This document shows positions 17,107 to 51,608 of a DNA stretch of 64,000 nucleotides, piece after piece. The stretch spans positions 960,001 through 1,024,000 of the forward strand of contig OY761614.1 of NCBI GenBank assembly GCA_963664825.1, given 5' to 3'. Every line of letters begins with the position of its first letter. Position 1 is the first letter of the stretch. Position numbers and translations under genes: made by a program. The notes under the pieces were generated by a model. That model did not search any database. It was not told the DNA's origin and saw nothing but the letters and a program-made list of their open reading frames with translations. The stretch comes from an uncultured Holophaga sp. GTDB taxonomy: Bacteria; Acidobacteriota; Holophagae; Holophagales; Holophagaceae.

Positions 17107-17403
17107 TCAGGCCCTCCCGGCCTCCACCAATTCCCGAACGAATAGCTCCGCATCGAAGCGGCCGGGCCGTTCGGGATGGAAGCCCCGGACCCAGCGCCTC
17201 CCGTCCACGAGAATGAACGGGATCGAACGCTTGCCCGTTTCCCGTTCCAGCCTCTCGGCGGCCCCCTCCACCTCTTCGATATCCACCACGGTGTGGGCCA
17301 GGGCATTCTCCCCGAGCCAACGATCCAGGCGACGGCAATCCCCGCACCAGGTCGCCGAATAGACCTGGAGATCGAGTCCTTGGAGAAGGCTGAGATCAGG
17401 CAT
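17107..17403 (-). CDS. Glutaredoxin/NrdH-like protein
   Basis: VYSATWCGDC (CxxC) and GKRSIPFI (cis-Pro). ATG 17403 after GGAGG. Confidence 0.85.
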   Translation of the reverse strand: MPDLSLLQGLDLQVYSATWCGDCRRLDRWLGENALAHTVVDIEEVEGAAERLERETGKRSIPFILVDGRRWVRGFHPERPGRFDAELFVRELVEAGRA

Positions 17404-17532
17404 GTTCCCTCCGATGAGACAGCTTAACCCGGGGTCATCCTGCCCCCTCGACGAAGGCAGCCCCCTCTTTCTATGGCAGGATAGGATGCACAGCCCAGTC
17501 ATGCTGGGACAACAGGATTAGAGGAGAACGAT

Positions 17533-18132
17533 ATGAAGCTGCGCCACGCGCACGGGATTGCCATCGCAGGACTGGCCCTGGTGGCAAGCCTTGGCTGCCA
17601 CAGGTTTTCCAGGGATAACAGCAAGGTCATCGCCAATGTCGCAGGCGAAAAGATCACGGAAAAGGCCTTCGCCGAGACCATCAAGGCCATGGTGCCCGAC
17701 GAAGCCAAGGCCAAGGAGATCCTCACCAGCGAGACCCTGCGCGATAAGCGCAACGAGTTCCTGGGCCAGGTGGCCAAGGCCAAGGCCCTGATCCTGCTGG
17801 GCAAGGCCCAGGGCCTGGACAAGGACCCCGCCGTCAAGCTCCGCATGGAACAGATGACGGCCCAGGCCTACGTGCAAACCCTCATGGAGCGCCGCCTGGC
17901 CAAGGCCCAGCCCACGGATGCCGAGCTCAAGGCCACCTACGACGAACTGGTCGCCGAGCGGAAGGCCCAGGGCCAGGACCAGGCTGTCCCGCCCTTCGAG
18001 CAGGTCAAGGCCCAGATGCCCGCCCTCTGGAAGCAGCGGCAGGAGACCAAGGTCTTCGAGCAGCTCATGAAGGAAGCCACCCAGAAATACCAGATCACCT
18101 ACGCCGACGCCTACAAACCCGCGCAGCAGTAA
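17533..18132 (+). CDS. Lipoprotein, PrsA/SurA N-terminal-like chaperone without an evident parvulin domain
   Basis: Lipobox SLGC, VIANVAGEKIT, GLDKDP and PPFEQVK. Confidence 0.65.
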   Translation: MKLRHAHGIAIAGLALVASLGCHRFSRDNSKVIANVAGEKITEKAFAETIKAMVPDEAKAKEILTSETLRDKRNEFLGQVAKAKALILLGKAQGLDKDPAVKLRMEQMTAQAYVQTLMERRLAKAQPTDAELKATYDELVAERKAQGQDQAVPPFEQVKAQMPALWKQRQETKVFEQLMKEATQKYQITYADAYKPAQQ

Positions 18133-18153
18133 GGCCCAATTTGCTTTATGGGA

Positions 18154-18175
18154 AAGGGGGCGCTGGCGCCCCCTT
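18154..18175. terminator. Rho-independent terminator between convergent genes
   Basis: AAGGGGGCG-CTGG-CGCCCCCTT followed by CTTAT. Confidence 0.65.
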
Positions 18176-18210
18176 CTTATGTCCCGACGGGACCAGCCGT
18201 CGCATCTTCG

Positions 18211-18740
18211 TCATGCCTTCCGCCCCCGCTTCTGCTTGACCTGGGTCTCCAGGGCTTCCAGCTCCGCGAGATCCTGGCGATCGGCTTCCTGGGCATCGAG
18301 CTGTTTGCGGCGGGCGTCGAAAGCCTCGAAGCGGGTATGGATTTGCTCGGACATGGCTTCGTGGCTGATGCTGCCCTTACCCTTCAAGAGTGGCAGTTCC
18401 TGGAAGGCGATGAGGCTGTCCTGCTTGCGCACGATGCGGCCCTGCCAGGTGGTGAGGGCCATGTGGGGTTGGGTGGGATCGGCCCGCTCCAGGACGAGTT
18501 CGGCCGCCGTGCGCTCGGTGGCGGCAAAGTTGTTAAGTAGTCCTTAACAACTGAACCAGCGTTCAACTCCTTTTCCTGCAATATCTTAGAGATGTGCATG
18601 CTGGTATTAGGCACCGAGGTGGCAAAAAACTCAGTGAGCTGGGCCTGGTTCATCCAGACGGATCCATCCCGGGCCATCAGGGACAAGGCGGCCTTGCCGT
18701 CATCGGTGCGGTAGAGGATGACTTGGGTATCGTCGGCCAT
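18211..18740 (-). pseudogene. rhuM: RhuM-family (virulence RhuM) pseudogene with internal deletions and a frameshift
   Basis: One frame has the N-terminal ILYRTDDG...VWMNQAQL...HISKILQEKEL. Another frame has TAAELVLERAD..PHMALTTWQG..VRKQD joined directly to PLLKGKGSISH. Confidence 0.7.
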
Positions 18741-18919
18741 TAAAGCAACTTTCAAAGGCTAAGGGAGGGATGCCGTTACCGATGGGAGTCCACCTGGAAC
18801 CCGGCCTTCAAGTCTAGTTCATTCCCGTCCCCACCCTTCACCGCCCATCACGAAAGAAGCCCAGGCGGGCCCAGGCTTCTCTTGACCATAGAATCATTGG
18901 GCGCTCGCGCCCCCCGATT

Positions 18920-20347
18920 CTATTTCCAGTGCTTCTCCACGAAGGCGTCCACTTCGGGCAGGCCGCCCTGAAGGATCAGGTAGCCGTTGTGGGGCTCCCG
19001 GGTCTCGATCTCGTGGTTGATGGCGGTGGTCATCATCTGGCGGATCGTCGCAGGGTCATCGGTCTGCCCCAGCACCCAGGCCAGCTTCATGTAGGCGGTC
19101 TCAGGCAGCATGTTATCCATGGGGATGATGCCCAGATCCAGCAGATCCCGCCCCGTGTCGTAGACGTACATCTGGGCGAAGCCCCAGAGGGTCTGCACGC
19201 ACATCACCACGGTCATGCCCTTCTCGATGGCCCGGCGGATGGCCGGATAGAGGGGCTTGTTCACGTGCCCCAGTCCCGTGCCGGCCATGACGAGGCCGCG
19301 GTAGCCCATGGAGGAAAGCCCATCGATGATGTCGGGATTGAAGTTGGGGTAGTAGTACTGGATCGTCACCTTCTCTTCGAAGCTGGGGTTGATGATGGGC
19401 TTGCGCGTCTTGTCCCGGCGGAGGATCTCCTCGGAGATGTAGGTAAAATGGCTGCCGTTGGCGTTGGGGTAGCGGCTCACGGTGGCCAGGGGGGTGGCGC
19501 CGATGGTGCGGAAGGTGCTGCGGTAGGAGGAGTGCATCTTCCGACAGCGGGTGCCCCTGTGCAGCAGATCGTAGTTGTCCGAGGTCGGCCCGAACATGCA
19601 GAGCATGACTTCGGCGATATCGCATTCGGCGGCCGTGCGCACGGCGTCCATGAGGTTCAGGGCCGCATCCGACGAGGGCCGGTCCGAGCTGCGCTGGCTC
19701 CCCACGATGACGATGGGCACGGGGCTCTGCTGGACCATGAAGCTGAGGATGGCGCCCGTGTGGCTCATGGTGTCGGTGCCATGGCCCACGACGATGCCGT
19801 CGACGCCCTTCTCGATCTCCTTGCCGATGGCGATGGCCAGGGCCTTGTACTGCTCGGGGCCCATATTCTCGCTGAAGACGCCGAAGAGCTTTTGCGTATC
19901 CAGATTGGCGATATCGGCCAGTTCGGGCACGGCGCCATAGAGCTCCCCCGGCGTGAAGGCGGGGATGACAGCGCCTGTCCGATAATCGAGGCGCGAGGCG
20001 ATGGTGCCCCCCGTGCCCAACAGCGTGACGTTCTTCTTCTTGGGGTCGTAGGGGAAAGCCTTCTCGGGAATCTTGTAGACGGCCTTCTTGTAGCCCTTCT
20101 CCTGGACAGAGACGATGCGGTCGGCGTGGATGCCCACGTTGTAGCCGTTGAAGAGCTTGATGACCACATGCTGATCGTCGGCGGTCTCGCTTCGGGGAAG
20201 GATCACGCCGATGAAGCTCGAGCCCTTGTCATTGAGGATCTCGACCTCGCTCCACACGCCGATTCCAAACTTCTCCAGCGTCTCCTTGGCCAGGCCTCGA
20301 TAGCCCTGGAAGGGGTTGGTGCGCTCTGCGAAAGGTGTCGTTGTCAT
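18920..20347 (-). CDS. gatD: Glu-tRNA(Gln) amidotransferase subunit D (archaeal type)
   Basis: N-terminal GatD domain (GYRG...HVVIKLFNGYNVGI). Asparaginase motifs GTGGTIASR and HGTDT. GatD-type GSQRSSDRPSSDA and RKMHSSYR. Confidence 0.92.
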   Translation of the reverse strand: MTTTPFAERTNPFQGYRGLAKETLEKFGIGVWSEVEILNDKGSSFIGVILPRSETADDQHVVIKLFNGYNVGIHADRIVSVQEKGYKKAVYKIPEKAFPYDPKKKNVTLLGTGGTIASRLDYRTGAVIPAFTPGELYGAVPELADIANLDTQKLFGVFSENMGPEQYKALAIAIGKEIEKGVDGIVVGHGTDTMSHTGAILSFMVQQSPVPIVIVGSQRSSDRPSSDAALNLMDAVRTAAECDIAEVMLCMFGPTSDNYDLLHRGTRCRKMHSSYRSTFRTIGATPLATVSRYPNANGSHFTYISEEILRRDKTRKPIINPSFEEKVTIQYYYPNFNPDIIDGLSSMGYRGLVMAGTGLGHVNKPLYPAIRRAIEKGMTVVMCVQTLWGFAQMYVYDTGRDLLDLGIIPMDNMLPETAYMKLAWVLGQTDDPATIRQMMTTAINHEIETREPHNGYLILQGGLPEVDAFVEKHWK

Positions 20348-22311
20348 CGCAGGACCTCCGCGGAGCCCGTGCCAGGGGCGCCTCCGCTGGTGTTGGGGCT
20401 GGAACCTCCCTCAAGCTTGGCGCGCAGGTAATCGGCGACGTCCTTGGCCGGAGCCTTGCCCAGGAGTTGTTCCATGGCGCGCCCGGCCAGAAAGCGCAGG
20501 CGCTTTTCCTGGGTATCCACCTTCTCGCCCTGGTAGCCCTCCATGGTGAGGCGGTCCACCTGTTCCTTCCACCTTTCCCGGGGCTGGATCGCCACGCCTT
20601 CGGCGCTGGCGGCCGCTTCCGCGGAAAGGCCATCCTCGGCCACACGGGCCGCCACGATGGAGATGGTCTCCCGGGGGATGAGCCCCCCTGTGAAGAGATC
20701 AAAAATTTGCACCCATTCGGAAACGCCCAGGCGTTCCACGGGGATGCCCGCCCGCTTGAGGGCCTTGCTGTGCTGGCCGATCTCGATGGCCGCCAGCAAC
20801 CCGTCCACGCCGGTCTTCTCGATGACCGCATCGAGGATCTCCGCCCCGCCCCGGCGAATGAGATACTGGCAGGTTTCCTCGGGCACGCGCCAGGACATGT
20901 AGCGCTCGATGCGCTTCCAGGGCACGGGTCGCAGGCGGGCCCGCAGACCCTCCACGCGGTCGTTGGTGACGCGGGTGGGCGGCGAATCCGTATCGGGATA
21001 CATGCGATCGGGACCGGGCAGGATGCGTTCGAAGGTGGTGAAGCCACCCGTCACCGCCTGGCGCGTCTCCTGGGGCACGCCCTGGGTGGCGTCGGCAAAG
21101 CGCAGGCGGATCTCTTCTGCGGCCGTGCGGCAGTCGTCCTCGGGGCCGAAGACGAGGAAGAAGTCGTCCCTTTCCCCCACCCGGGCCCGCTTGCGCAGGC
21201 GTTCGAGCACCCTGTGCTTATCGGGGAATTCCGGTAGCAGGGCACCACTCAGCACGATGGGCGCCTCGTCCAGGCACGCGATGACGCGGATGCGGCCGGA
21301 GAGTTCGTCCAGGAAGGTGGTATCGGGCTGGGTGGGATACTGGGCCAGGCCCGCCACACCCTCCACCTTCACGGCAAAGACCTTCCCGCCCACCTTGAGG
21401 GCCCGGCGCAGGAAGCCCAGATCCACCTCGGCGCAGATATCCGAGACATCGAAGGGCTGGACATGGATGGATTCACGGGTGCTGAGGCCCCTCGCATGGA
21501 GCTCGTCCCGCAGCTTCAACAGATTGCACTGGCGGACGCCTTCGTTGTGGACCAGCTTCACGGCGTAGCCCGCCCGGGGCACGCCCTTGATCTCGCAGCG
21601 ATTGCCACCCCGCACGCTGACATTCACGTCCTGGCGGCTGGCGCCGATCCCGGTGCGCACGCGCTGGGTGGAACGGGCGGTCATGCCGCAGAGGATGATG
21701 GCGTCCCGCACTTCCTGGGGCGAGCGCAGCTCGGGACCGGTCACGGTCTCCGTGAGCGGCATGCCCAGGCGATCCGTGCGCCACACGATCTGGTGGCCCT
21801 TGTCGCGCACCTCCCGGCAGGAATCCTCCTCCAGGCTCACATGGGTGATGGTGAGATCGCGGCCGTGGAAGGGCAGCTTCCCGTTCATGCCGATGATGGC
21901 CGTGCGCTGGAAGCCCGTGGGGATGGAACCATCCAGGTACTGCTTCCGGGCGATATGGATCTCGTCGATGATGTCCATGCCCATCATCAGGCAGAGCTCG
22001 ATGGAGGCGTCGATGGCCTCCTGGTTCACGAGGAAGGGCGGCGTGTCGTCCATCTCGTAGGTGCAGACGTTCTGGTGGTTCAGGAGGTAGATGATCTCCT
22101 TCTTCGTCTTGAATTCCATGAGGGCGGTGCCATCGTACTCCCCCAGTTCCGAGAGGGTCGGTCTCATGTGGCGCAGCACTTCCCCATCGTGGGTCTCGGT
22201 GTAAAGCCCTGCCGGGCAGCGGCAGAACAGCTTGTGCTTGGTCAGCAACTGCTGATGCACCTCCAACCCAGAGATGAGTCCTACGGCTTCGTAATCCAGA
22301 CGCTCAAGCAT
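20344..22311 (-). CDS. gatE: Glu-tRNA(Gln) amidotransferase subunit E (archaeal type)
   Basis: GLEVHQQL, RPTLSELGEYD, RKQYLDGSIPTGFQRT, LEEDS, DRLGMPL, GIGASRQDVNVS, a central insertion domain and PGPDRMYPDTD. The start may be slightly upstream. Confidence 0.92.
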   Translation of the reverse strand: MLERLDYEAVGLISGLEVHQQLLTKHKLFCRCPAGLYTETHDGEVLRHMRPTLSELGEYDGTALMEFKTKKEIIYLLNHQNVCTYEMDDTPPFLVNQEAIDASIELCLMMGMDIIDEIHIARKQYLDGSIPTGFQRTAIIGMNGKLPFHGRDLTITHVSLEEDSCREVRDKGHQIVWRTDRLGMPLTETVTGPELRSPQEVRDAIILCGMTARSTQRVRTGIGASRQDVNVSVRGGNRCEIKGVPRAGYAVKLVHNEGVRQCNLLKLRDELHARGLSTRESIHVQPFDVSDICAEVDLGFLRRALKVGGKVFAVKVEGVAGLAQYPTQPDTTFLDELSGRIRVIACLDEAPIVLSGALLPEFPDKHRVLERLRKRARVGERDDFFLVFGPEDDCRTAAEEIRLRFADATQGVPQETRQAVTGGFTTFERILPGPDRMYPDTDSPPTRVTNDRVEGLRARLRPVPWKRIERYMSWRVPEETCQYLIRRGGAEILDAVIEKTGVDGLLAAIEIGQHSKALKRAGIPVERLGVSEWVQIFDLFTGGLIPRETISIVAARVAEDGLSAEAAASAEGVAIQPRERWKEQVDRLTMEGYQGEKVDTQEKRLRFLAGRAMEQLLGKAPAKDVADYLRAKLEGGSSPNTSGGAPGTGSAEVLR

Positions 22312-22430
22312 CGGAATCCTTCCGGTAATGGGTACACTCACGGAAGGGTCCCGCCTTCGGGGACCCATCGTCAAGCCGCAAAATCTTCTGAAATCGAGGA
22401 ATGACGGGCGTCACAGCCTCTGGACGACAA

Positions 22431-22465
22431 AAGACCGCCCGGCCTCCGAAAAGACCGGGCGGTTT
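22431..22465 (-). terminator. Terminator after pepD
   Basis: ACCGCCCGG...CCGGGCGGT stem, followed by a U-run on the minus strand. Confidence 0.65.
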
Positions 22466-22488
22466 CTATTGACGCTGGCAATCTCGGT

Positions 22489-23937
22489 TCAGGCCTTTTC
22501 CAGCACGGCCGTCACCAGTTTCCAGCAGTTGCTCACGGACGGGATGCTCAAGTGCTCGTCGGGGGTGTGCACATCCCACATATCGGGGCCGATGGAGACC
22601 ATCTCCATCTCGGGATATTTCTCGCCGATGAGGCCGCACTCCAGGCCCGCATGGATGGCCACCACCTTCATGGGCTGGCCGAAGAGCTGCTTCTGCAGGC
22701 CGTCCACGAGCTTCACCAGGGAAGCATTGGGCTCGGGCTTCCAGCCGGGATAACCGCCCACCAGATGGGACTCGAAGCCCGCCATGGCGCAAACCGCGGC
22801 GATGCGGTGGGTCAGGGCGAACTTGGAGGCATCGATGGAGCTGCGGGAGAGGAGATTGATCTCGATCTTGCCATCCTTGGTATCGATGACGCCCAGGTTG
22901 GTGGAAGTCTGGACCAGGCCCTGGATATCGGGGCTCATGGCCTCGACGCCGTGGGGCAGGCAAAGGATCAGGCTGATGACGGAGACCGCGTCGTGATCGG
23001 ACATGACCTGGCCCGCCACGCCGGCTTCCAGGCTCATGACCAGCCCGGGATCGAAGGCGCCGAAGGCGGCCTTCCAATCGGCTTCCTGCTTGGCCAACTC
23101 GGCCTTGAAGGCCGCTTCCTGGGCAGGCGCCAGATAGAGATAGGCGGAAGCCTCTCGGGGAATGGCGTTGCGCTTATTGCCGCCCTTGATCGCGGAGAGC
23201 TCGAAGGCGAAGTCCGGCCGCAGGGCATAGAGCACCTGGCCCAGGATGCGGATGGCATTGCCGCGGCCGGCGGGGATATCGATGCCGGAATGGCCGCCCT
23301 TGAGGCCCGAGATCTTCAGGCGGAAGGGCTTCTTGGCTGCGGGAGGCGCGCTCAGGGTGAGCTGGCGGGTCGTGATGGTATCGACGCCCCCGGCGCATCC
23401 GATGGTGAGAAATCCCTCTTCCTCGCTATCGAGATTGAGGAGGTACTTGGACTTCAGCCAGTTGGCCTGGATGTTGGTGGCGCCCGTGAGACCCGTCTCC
23501 TCGTCGATGGTGACCAGCAGCTCCACGGGACCATGGGCGATGTCCTTGCTGGCCATCACCGCCAAGCCCATCGCGACTCCGATGCCGTTATCGGCGCCCA
23601 GGGTCGTGCCCGTGGCCCGGAGGTTATCGCCATCCCGGCGCAGCCGGATGGGATCCTTGAGGAAGTCGTGCTGGGTGTCCTCGTTCTTCTCGCAGACCAT
23701 GTCCACATGGGCCTGGAGACAGACGCCGGGGCGGTTCTCCTTGCCCTTGGTGCCGGGCTTGCGGATGAGCACGTTGCCGATGGCGTCCCGGGAGACATCC
23801 AGGCCCAACGCGCGGCCCTGGTCGGCCACCCAGTTCGCAGCCTCGGCTTCCAGCTTGGATCCCCGGGGGATCTTGGAGAGTTCGAAGAAATAGTTCCAGA
23901 GCGGATTGGGCTCTAGGGTTGCGAGAAGCTTATCCAC
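22489..23937 (-). CDS. pepD: Aminoacyl-histidine dipeptidase (M20)
   Basis: LQAHVDMV, TTLGADNGIG, DEETG, NLDSEE, GGHSG, IHAGLECG and HTPDE motifs. GTG start after GGAGG. Confidence 0.93.
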   Translation of the reverse strand: MDKLLATLEPNPLWNYFFELSKIPRGSKLEAEAANWVADQGRALGLDVSRDAIGNVLIRKPGTKGKENRPGVCLQAHVDMVCEKNEDTQHDFLKDPIRLRRDGDNLRATGTTLGADNGIGVAMGLAVMASKDIAHGPVELLVTIDEETGLTGATNIQANWLKSKYLLNLDSEEEGFLTIGCAGGVDTITTRQLTLSAPPAAKKPFRLKISGLKGGHSGIDIPAGRGNAIRILGQVLYALRPDFAFELSAIKGGNKRNAIPREASAYLYLAPAQEAAFKAELAKQEADWKAAFGAFDPGLVMSLEAGVAGQVMSDHDAVSVISLILCLPHGVEAMSPDIQGLVQTSTNLGVIDTKDGKIEINLLSRSSIDASKFALTHRIAAVCAMAGFESHLVGGYPGWKPEPNASLVKLVDGLQKQLFGQPMKVVAIHAGLECGLIGEKYPEMEMVSIGPDMWDVHTPDEHLSIPSVSNCWKLVTAVLEKA

Positions 23938-24083
23938 GACAGACCTCCAGAAAGGGAAACTTGGAACCATCGGATTTCTGTGGACCCCGAGGCCACGCCC
24001 CTGAGCCCTCATGGCACGAGGGTACCAGGAACGGGCTCCCGGGGGGCCTCATCCCCTGATATTCATCTCAGCCATATGCGCCA

Positions 24084-24112
24084 AAGGGGGGAGGCGCATG
24101 GCCTCCCCCCTT
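24084..24112 (-). terminator. Terminator after the outer-membrane protein gene
   Basis: AAGGGGGGAGGC-GCATG-GCCTCCCCCCTT. Confidence 0.7.
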
Positions 24113-24129
24113 GCATTCGCGTGGTGAGG

Positions 24130-25083
24130 CTAGAAGGTGAAACTCAGACCGGCTGTGACCCCGTTCAGAGAACCCCAGCCGCGGTTGGGCTCAGCATTGT
24201 AGACGGCCAGCATGGGCTGCTGCGAATCGGCCGTCACCTTGCCGAAATCGCGCATCTCGCAGCCCAGATAGCCGCTGAGCTGCTTGGTGAAGGCCATGTT
24301 CAGGCGCACCCGGTAATCCAGCTGCTGGAAGGAACGATGGTTGCCCTTGTTGGTGATCATCCGCCAGCCGTCATCTCCGTTGCCCATCTGGAAGACGCCC
24401 CGGATATCCCCCTGGAGCATGGCGCAGGTGACGCCCGCACTGAGCCAGAGGCTCTTGGTGAGCTCGTAGCGGGTGTTCAGGCCGAAGGTGAAGCCGTAGG
24501 CCGCGGTCTTGGCCTTGTTGAAGAATTGCTCACTGTTGGTGCCATCGGGCAGGGCATCGATCACGCTCCCCGTGCTTGCCGTCCAGGAACCGTAGCGAAG
24601 GCCGAGCTCGTAGCCGAAGGAGGCCGAGCCCACGGTGGCCAGGGGACGCATCCACTTGAGATCCAGGACCACGGCCTCCAGCTTGCTCTGGCCATCGATG
24701 CGATCGGCCGAACCGCCGGGGCCGAAGCTTCCCCAGACCAGGTTAGGCCCCACTTCGGTCTGCCGCGTCGTCTTGGAGGTACTCATGTAGTCCAGGACGA
24801 AGCTGTTGTCCCCGAGCTTCAGGCCGAGGTTGATCCCGAGAGGCGTGTGGGAGCCGGCCTTGAAGTTGATATCCTCCACTACACGGGTCGAGACCGAAGC
24901 GAATTTGGCCCCCGCGGCCTTCTCCACACCCTTGGGGTTCACCCCCGCCCCACGCATGGCCAGGCTCCGATCGGTCCCCTGGACGGTGGCATAACCGGTG
25001 TTGATTCCAAAAGTGAACTCCTGAGCCTGGACGCTGCAGGCCGCAAGGGCGAGGGCCAGGGTGGTAAAAACTGAGGTCTTCAT
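24130..25083 (-). CDS. Outer-membrane beta-barrel protein (porin-like)
   Basis: Signal peptide MKTSVFTTLALALAACSVQA, beta-strand pattern and C-terminal GLSFTF. Confidence 0.7.
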   Translation of the reverse strand: MKTSVFTTLALALAACSVQAQEFTFGINTGYATVQGTDRSLAMRGAGVNPKGVEKAAGAKFASVSTRVVEDINFKAGSHTPLGINLGLKLGDNSFVLDYMSTSKTTRQTEVGPNLVWGSFGPGGSADRIDGQSKLEAVVLDLKWMRPLATVGSASFGYELGLRYGSWTASTGSVIDALPDGTNSEQFFNKAKTAAYGFTFGLNTRYELTKSLWLSAGVTCAMLQGDIRGVFQMGNGDDGWRMITNKGNHRSFQQLDYRVRLNMAFTKQLSGYLGCEMRDFGKVTADSQQPMLAVYNAEPNRGWGSLNGVTAGLSFTF

Positions 25084-51531: not shown

Positions 51532-51608
51532 TGGCGGGGCTGACGGGACTCGAACCCGCGACTTCCAGCGTGACAGGCTGGCACTCTAACCGACTGAGCT
51601 ACAACCCC
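51532..51608 (-). tRNA. tRNA-Asp(GTC)
   Basis: Reverse complement GGGGTTGTAGCTCAGTCGGTTAGAGTGCCAGCCTGTCACGCTGGAAGTCGCGGGTTCGAGTCCCGTCAGCCCCGCCA. Confidence 0.96.

Follow-up and report, generated by a model that had tools for sequence, protein, structure and literature searches.

The window analysed here is a stretch of 64,000 nucleotides from an uncultured Holophaga sp. (Acidobacteriota), taken from contig OY761614.1 at positions 960,001 to 1,024,000 of the forward strand. On its minus strand it carries two overlapping genes, gatE and gatD (Table 1), and by every sequence test applied the pair is a true GatDE, the two-subunit amidotransferase that forms Gln-tRNA(Gln) from Glu-tRNA(Gln) in archaea. 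An earlier note, made from the letters of the window alone, had proposed an archaeal-type GatDE in a bacterium, encoded by overlapping open reading frames (ORFs). The overlap is confirmed by the ORF coordinates, the cut-offs of the family equivalogs are passed, and both proteins align over their full length to the archaeal structures.

Table 1. Features of the gatE-gatD locus, in positions of the window.
Feature	Position	Strand	Description
gatE	20344..22311	minus	655 amino acids (aa) from ATG at 22311; tRNA-dependent kinase/amidotransferase subunit of GatDE
gatD	18920..20347	minus	475 aa; asparaginase-type glutaminase subunit with the GatD N-terminal domain
ATGA overlap of gatE stop and gatD start (translational coupling)	20344..20347	minus	4 bases; from ORF coordinates
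Shine-Dalgarno-like GGAAGGA	22317..22323	minus	5 bases 5' of the gatE ATG; read from sequence
Terminator-like hairpin	22434..22463	minus	13 pairs (9 G-C) followed by CTTTTGTCGT; separates gatE from the gene of the PepD-like dipeptidase

The translations contain all of the motifs quoted in the earlier note, namely GLEVHQQL, DGSIPTGFQRT and RMYPDTD in GatE, and TGGTIAS, HGTDT and GSQRSSDRPSSD in GatD. In Pfam, GatD matches the GatD_N domain (48.8 bits; cut-off 25.7), which bears out the N-terminal domain noted before, as well as Asparaginase and Asparaginase_C. In GatD proteins this N-terminal domain is joined to a type I asparaginase fold that has a Thr nucleophile and a Thr-Lys-Asp triad. A comparison of profile hidden Markov models for GatD and GatE with those for GatB and AnsA, which the earlier note had proposed, came out clearly: GatD passes the NCBIfam equivalogs NF003217 (480.8 bits; cut-off 310) and TIGR02153 (479.4 bits; cut-off 324), GatE passes NF003107 (481.6 bits; cut-off 456) and TIGR00134 (425 bits; cut-off 319.6), and the GatB and asparaginase models of NCBIfam score far under their cut-offs for both proteins. 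For instance, the window's GatE reaches at most 131.6 bits on GatB models whose cut-offs range from 315 to 680 (338 for the best-scoring model). The central insertion described earlier is likewise visible, as the GatB_N profile of Pfam, 277 positions long, is stretched over GatE residues 14-453; judged by alignment, the stretch inside this match is the GatE central insertion, which is absent from GatB. The alignment of GatE to 1zq1_C and 2d6f_C is continuous through this insertion, and PF02938, Pfam's own model of it, is not among the GatE matches at E <= 0.001.

Comparison with solved structures points the same way. The whole of GatE is matched by 1zq1_C (E 3.2e-96) and 2d6f_C (E 7.3e-93), with the nearest GatB chain at E 8e-17, and GatD aligns end to end to 2d6f_A (E 1e-110) and 1zq1_A (E 4e-106), with the best plain asparaginase at E 9e-35. 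The GatD motifs TGGTIAS and SQRSSDRPSSDA are identical, residue for residue, in 1zq1_A, and HGTDT is present in both structures; the counterpart of TGGTIAS in 2d6f_A reads TGGTVAS. The window's GatE retains all 43 invariant columns of a 52-sequence alignment of bacterial and archaeal proteins, including H19, E161 and E188. By alignment offset, these three residues correspond to His15, Glu157 and Glu184 of Methanothermobacter thermautotrophicus GatE, which are Mg ligands and whose mutation kills the enzyme (PMC2330236). The C-terminal, YqeY-like tail is the part of GatE that reads the D-loop of the tRNA; here it is aligned with the structures to residue 634 but stays below the cut-off of Pfam GatB_Yqey (22.1 bits; cut-off 27), and its motif, in the stretch 618-624, reads GKAPAK, versus mostly G-[KR]-x-D-G-K in archaea.

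The ORF of gatE extends over 20344..22374 on the minus strand and would encode 676 aa if read from a TTG at 22374. The ATG at 22311 is likely the start, rather than the upstream TTG, because it is preceded by GGAAGGA and homologues align from residue 1. The window's GatD is also recorded as a 430-aa form (P0006; 100% identity, 90% coverage), the end of which was probably mis-set in the gene call, since homologues are 474-478 aa long and span 99-100% of the 475-aa ORF. The terminator-like hairpin at 22434-22463 suggests that gatE-gatD is a separate transcription unit, and it is a pattern match from a consensus scan that gave 5 such sites against a mean of 3.7 in shuffled sequence. No sigma-70-like promoter was found by consensus scan in 18300-24400. 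The operon is flanked on one side by ligA, rodA, mreC and mreB, and on the other by the gene of a PepD-like M20 dipeptidase and mfd; the plainly bacterial neighbourhood reported before was thus recovered. On the plus strand at 17533-18132 there is a 199-aa ORF without a noteworthy family match, which adjoins gatD also in a genome of the same genus (80% identity) and in one of another genus (46%). In the same-genus genome, 3 kb that have no counterpart in the window separate this ORF from gatD.

Given the unexpected domain of origin, three further accounts were considered: that the assembly is chimeric here, that an island was imported recently, and that the locus is a relic in decay. Beyond that surprise, nothing favours any of them. 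The window's genome is one closed contig of 3.47 Mb, and both reading frames are intact. An independently assembled genome of the same genus has an identical gene order, with GatD at 91% and GatE at 90% identity, and a second genus of the family preserves the position of the operon next to mreB-mreC-pbp2-rodA-ligA. Coverage across the junctions, a check that the earlier note had called for, argues against a chimeric contig: contigs of public run X1, which may be the source sample of the genome, bridge 17153-19001, 19829-21772 and 22084-23515 with zero differences, those of run X3 cover 18661-19001 and 22250-22647, and one of run X4 covers 22084-23515. The GC content of the two operon genes (0.625 and 0.658) is close to that of the genome (0.637). 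Codon usage, judged native by eye in the earlier note, is at the 98th percentile of conformity for gatD and the 87th for gatE among 1110 long ORFs of the genome, a reference set that may include some shadow ORFs. The ratio of nonsynonymous to synonymous substitution rates (dN/dS) against the same-genus genome is 0.122 for gatD and 0.121 for gatE, compared with 0.042 for mreB, 0.203 for the M20 gene and 0.212 for mreC. Together, the synteny in two genera, the bridging contigs, the native codons and a dN/dS of 0.12 led to rejection of the chimera and recent-island readings, and the chance that the locus is any of the three artefacts is close to nil. The operon is native to the bacterium and under purifying selection. 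In a metatranscriptome run (X20), contigs with 95-99% likeness lie on gatD, gatE and the M20 gene, which hints weakly that a close relative transcribes them; stretches of the operon that lack contigs in this run are uninformative.

Within a very large bacterial clade, the window's operon is an ordinary case. When prokaryotes were searched for GatE, with a single genome standing for each species, at least 600 matches were obtained, the best 80 of which were analysed as loci. None of these 80 bears an archaeal title, and by their labels the majority come from bacterial bins or isolates, mainly of Acidobacteriota, Bacteroidota, Ignavibacteriota, Planctomycetota, Gemmatimonadota, Myxococcota, Spirochaetota, Cloacimonadota, Fermentibacterota and Krumholzibacteria; a few have another phylum label or none, and one is the isolate Perlabentimonas gracilis. 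The gatD gene is present in 62 of the 80 loci, and in 57 it follows gatE immediately on the same strand. Of the loci in which it was not found, 10 are cut by a contig end and 8 have no gatD within 4.5 kb. Identity to the window's proteins across the loci is 59-92% for GatD and 39-79% for GatE, which has diverged far more. All of the GatD homologues among the 120 matches listed are at least 81% identical, and the named ones are annotated as GatD in bins that include Thermoanaerobaculia, Holophaga, Pirellulaceae, Polyangia, Clostridia and others. The annotated homologues that the earlier note had allowed for in other bacteria are therefore very many, across many phyla.

Of 401 genomes of Acidobacteriota with a completeness of at least 90%, 65 have a GatE above the cut-off; counted by genus, the figure is 43 of 230. 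The pattern is patchy yet consistent inside families. The same GatE search on 14 named controls gave matches in four, all of them archaea. In the class to which the window's genome belongs, 17 of 41 genomes have a GatD that passes its cut-off. Clustering of the ORFs in the best 80 loci revealed no family beyond gatE and gatD that recurs. A second clustered family, tried as an accessory gene, was taken for shadow ORFs, as in the loci inspected it lies opposite gatD, on the other strand, and overlaps it.

GatDE is called archaeal or archaea-only by a 2008 paper (PMC2330236), a 2009 paper (PMC2811023) and reviews of 2021 and 2022 (PMC9499178 for the latter). The bacterial loci across many phyla do not fit this restriction. 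A search of the literature outside the subscription journals found no paper describing a bacterial GatDE; the clade is annotated in databases, yet it is not discussed in the literature searched.

The origin of the clade was approached through phylogeny of GatE only. In a FastTree analysis of 174 GatE rows, 95 rows are split from 79 with a support of 100. The 95-row side includes all 61 rows from the best 80 loci, none with an archaeal title, whereas on the 79-row side, wherever a source gives a name, it is one of Heimdall-, Thor- and Odinarchaeota, Thermoplasmatota and Methanofastidiosum; the label archaeal for this side rests on organism names carried by 5 of 20 representatives looked up and is extended to the rest. 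A maximum-likelihood tree of 56 GatE and GatB rows (LG+C20 with posterior mean site frequencies), rooted on three GatB, recovered a bacterial GatE clade of 19 rows (support 100/100) and a clade of 8 rows (100/100) composed of 7 picked as Heimdall-group and 1 named Thorarchaeota. Four of the 7 picks are named Heimdallarchaeota by a source, and the other three are close relatives. These two clades join each other at 99/95, nested among other Asgard branches, and the same join is found in two quick trees (98 and 97).

These data favour, and do not prove, a history in which bacteria acquired GatE once, long ago, from an Asgard-like archaeon, after which it spread among them. The old interdomain transfer suspected in the earlier note is therefore supported by the position of the bacterial clade beside Heimdallarchaeota, but it falls short of proof: when all 34 archaeal rows are held together, the cost is 7.58 log-likelihood units and the approximately unbiased (AU) test does not reject the constraint (p 0.30). 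A deep split between bacterial and archaeal GatE, in place of a transfer, would thus be compatible with the same test. One GatE labelled 'Thermoplasmata archaeon' (P0388) falls inside the bacterial clade; its label may be wrong, because the contig recorded for the sequence is 5.16 Mb long.

The role of GatDE was considered against the rest of the aminoacylation machinery of the host. The window's genome encodes glutaminyl-tRNA synthetase (GlnRS; 729 bits), asparaginyl-tRNA synthetase (AsnRS; 624 bits), GatA (532.1 bits) and a true GatB (522.7 bits) at C1:1491030-1492469. ORFs read by eye around weaker matches add one glutamyl-tRNA synthetase (GluRS), one bacterial-type aspartyl-tRNA synthetase (AspRS) and a GluQRS-like paralogue; a dedicated second GluRS, which was considered, was set aside on the same reading. 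Neither AsnA nor AsnB was found over the cut-off in this genome. GatCAB is kept in Deinococcus and Thermus for asparagine synthesis, and because AsnA and AsnB are not found over the cut-off here, the GatCAB of the window's genome can be explained, by analogy, as its asparagine route. With GlnRS, AsnRS and GatCAB all present, GatDE is therefore surplus on paper for the supply of Gln-tRNA, and that part of the earlier proposal, in which GatDE supplies Gln-tRNA, is not borne out as a need.

The substrate itself is also of the bacterial type. Both tRNA(Gln) genes of the genome (CUG and UUG) and its tRNA(Asn) have U1-A72, as the earlier note had expected for a bacterial tRNA(Gln), and tRNA(Asp) has G1-C72 (ARAGORN); no archaeal-type tRNA(Gln) was found in the genome. 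Of the survey that the earlier note had recommended, these results cover glnS, gatCAB and the 1-72 pair. A third 'tRNA-Gln(ctg)' of 82 bases at C1:3083857-3083938 has no CCA end and a poor fold, and is probably a false ARAGORN call. Within the window, a tRNA-Asp(GTC) gene with G1-C72 lies on the minus strand at 51532-51608 (genome 1011532-1011608). The tRNA(Glu) genes at C1:819523-819597 and 828844-828918 have a G1.U72 wobble and A73 in the ARAGORN fold, in place of the usual G1-C72. Elsewhere, the one tRNA(Gln) checked in a Krumholzibacteria genome has U1-A72, and a BLAST search with a 75-base tRNA(Gln) recovered a tRNA(Gln) in one of five genomes of other phyla.

Archaeal GatDE reads the A1-U72 pair and the D-loop of tRNA(Gln) (PMC2330236). 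The host tRNA(Gln) lacks A1-U72, a difference that concerns the mode of recognition and not homology, and since the archaeal enzyme reads A1-U72 and the host has U1-A72, bacterial GatDE would have to read the first pair differently. A loop of GatE (residues 217-228) lies adjacent to the first base pair in a docking model (PMC2811023). This loop reads KVKRG[LI]GTIRQD in archaeal rows and KVR[TR]GIGA[AGT]RQD in bacterial rows. At position 225, 92% of the 79 archaeal rows have Ile, and 87% of the 95 bacterial ones have Ala, Gly, Thr or Val; at position 220, Arg is found in 96% of the archaeal rows, and the bacterial rows mostly have Thr (53%) or Arg (37%). A shift of first-base-pair specificity in bacterial GatE is therefore plausible.

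Genomic context provides a further lead. In all three Gemmatimonadota loci (L069, 804-4488; L077, 3283-10005; L087, 3376-10940), a divergent gltX is followed by gatE-gatD-glnS. The glnS ORF overlaps the end of gatD in L077 and L087, and the third locus is cut by a contig end. This gltX is the sole GluRS match in both Gemmatimonadota genomes checked. L087 also has an extra 254-aa ORF between gatE and gatD. The gltX and glnS context ties GatDE to Glu-tRNA and Gln-tRNA metabolism.

With a little more than even confidence, we lean towards a joint reading of the locus. The pair would be a working Glu-tRNA(Gln) amidotransferase, re-tuned to the bacterial U1-A72 pair and operating beside GlnRS, and the operon would have been inherited vertically within the acidobacterial family as a member of the large bacterial GatDE clade. 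In the proposed mechanism, GatE would bind mischarged Glu-tRNA(Gln) and phosphorylate the glutamyl side chain, steps demonstrated for archaeal enzymes only. GatD would release ammonia from Gln or Asn, and the ammonia would travel to GatE, where Gln-tRNA(Gln) would be formed. The bacterial enzyme would differ in its reading of the first base pair, the host tRNA(Gln) being U1-A72. Because the cell also has GlnRS, GatDE would be a second, indirect route, and its likeliest job might be to convert Glu-tRNA(Gln) made by an incompletely discriminating GluRS, either as repair or as a supply when free glutamine is short.

Several observations weigh against this reading. GlnRS is over the cut-off in 34 of the 41 relatives, with or without GatDE, and 43 of 50 GatDE-bearing genomes of other lineages have a GlnRS match (39 over the cut-off). 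Among the genomes examined, none clearly depends on GatDE for Gln-tRNA. No tRNA-Gln gene was found beside the operon in the 60 of the best 80 loci that were scanned. GatCAB, which is present here, could do the same repair. Mischarging of tRNA(Gln) by GluRS is an assumption, the differences in the GatE loop are correlative, and the amidotransferase activity is deduced from homology. The idea that some bacteria rely wholly on GatDE for Gln-tRNA was considered as well. GatB is present in 19 of the 50 GatDE-bearing genomes from other lineages, and 7 of the 50 have no GlnRS match, of which 5 also have no GatB. One of these 5 has a glnS fragment at a contig end, and 3 of the remaining 4 give no GluRS match either, though all 14 controls do; these three bins are probably incomplete, and the idea was set aside.

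A bacterial GatDE of relaxed specificity could also, or mainly, convert Asp-tRNA(Asn) to Asn-tRNA(Asn), which would provide asparagine by a tRNA-dependent route and replace GatCAB in lineages that lost it. We regard this as unlikely, though it has more in its favour than the other alternatives. The host tRNA(Gln) and tRNA(Asn) both have U1-A72, as is the case in bacteria, so the first pair cannot separate them, and this pair is one of the two elements by which archaeal GatDE rejects tRNA(Asn) (PMC2330236). The GatE tail motif has been linked to discrimination against tRNA(Asn) (PMC2811023), and its Asp/Gly pair, present in 64%/81% of archaeal rows, falls to 26%/53% in bacterial rows and is Pro-Ala in the window. 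The failure to find AsnA and AsnB in the window's own genome fits this reading as well. On the other hand, characterised GatDE does not use Asp-tRNA(Asn), the GatE insertion, predicted by modelling to clash with AspRS (PMC2330236), is kept here, and the genes linked by context are gltX and glnS rather than aspS or asnS. In the window's genome, moreover, GatCAB already accounts for asparagine synthesis.

The distribution of asparagine enzymes cuts both ways. An AsnB-family match is present in 4 of the 17 GatDE-bearing relatives and in 18 of the 24 relatives without GatDE, and AsnA, AsnB and GatB are all absent from 5 of the former versus none of the latter. These 5 consist of all four genomes examined from one genus of the class (92-99% complete) and one that is 76% complete. 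The four (G025, G027, G035 and G039) have GatDE and AsnRS, and AsnA, AsnB, GatA and GatB were not found in them. They represent one genus, however, and so one event, for which asparagine import (auxotrophy) is a simple alternative. In other lineages, 8 of the 50 GatDE-bearing genomes lack AsnA, AsnB and GatB, one of them a closed chromosome, but an AsnB-family gene is present in 37 of the 50. The closed chromosome (G080, which holds locus L070) encodes GatDE and AsnRS; AsnA, AsnB, GatA and GatB were not found in it, and, as in the four genomes of that genus, no known asparagine route is visible. That GatDE is the only asparagine route in lineages without AsnA, AsnB and GatCAB, with an Asgard-derived enzyme having taken over the job of GatCAB, is a slightly more doubtful proposition than relaxed specificity as such.

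The pair could, finally, have been repurposed outside translation, for instance to amidate a different acyl-tRNA or a substrate that is not a tRNA. GatDE looks surplus for both Gln-tRNA and Asn-tRNA, and the greater divergence of GatE relative to GatD between clades is a second point in favour. Against this, the tRNA-binding parts of GatE (cradle, insertion, helical part and tail) align with the structures as far as residue 634, all catalytic residues of GatE are kept, no extra neighbour is conserved among the best 80 loci, and the sole recurrent context is gltX and glnS. Such repurposing appears very improbable, and a Glu-tRNA(Gln) amidotransferase beside GlnRS remains the preferred reading.

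The significance of the locus lies less in the single window, where it is moderate, than in the clade as a whole, where it is higher. A large bacterial clade of single origin beside Asgard GatE changes the archaea-only picture of GatDE. The absence of GatDE from bacteria has been used in scenarios for the evolution of Gln-tRNA and the amidotransferases that start from the last universal common ancestor, as in the 2022 review (PMC9499178, citing Sheppard and Soll, 2008). Bacterial GatDE is usually found alongside GlnRS, often without GatCAB, which raises the question of what role an indirect pathway has in cells that already hold the direct one.

Among characterised systems, the closest is archaeal GatDE (M. 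thermautotrophicus, 2D6F; Pyrococcus abyssi, 1ZQ1), which has two subunits with the same domain order as here. The Mg ligands, the Thr and Asp motifs of GatD and the insertion of GatE are all kept, and the GatE tail is alignable to residue 634. Unlike the archaeal enzyme, the window's GatDE has a bacterial host whose tRNA(Gln) is U1-A72 in place of A1-U72, carries clade-specific changes in the first-pair loop and the tail motif, and coexists with GlnRS, which no archaeal species encodes according to the 2022 review (PMC9499178). The nearest archaeal branch is the GatE of Heimdallarchaeota (Asgard), with about 38% identity to the window's GatE (P0158). Bacterial GatCAB performs the same overall chemistry, and its GatB, a paralogue of GatE, recognises U1-A72 of both tRNA(Gln) and tRNA(Asn). 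However, GatCAB releases ammonia by the amidase GatA with GatC, and GatDE by the asparaginase-like GatD. A precedent for an apparently surplus enzyme is provided by Deinococcus, Thermus and Bdellovibrio, in which an amidotransferase stands beside GlnRS and AsnRS; Deinococcus and Thermus are reported to encode both synthetases and GatCAB (PMC4206432). The window's genome resembles these in holding GlnRS, AsnRS and GatCAB together, with no AsnA or AsnB over the cut-off, but the enzyme that appears surplus is GatCAB in Deinococcus, Thermus and Bdellovibrio, and GatDE here.

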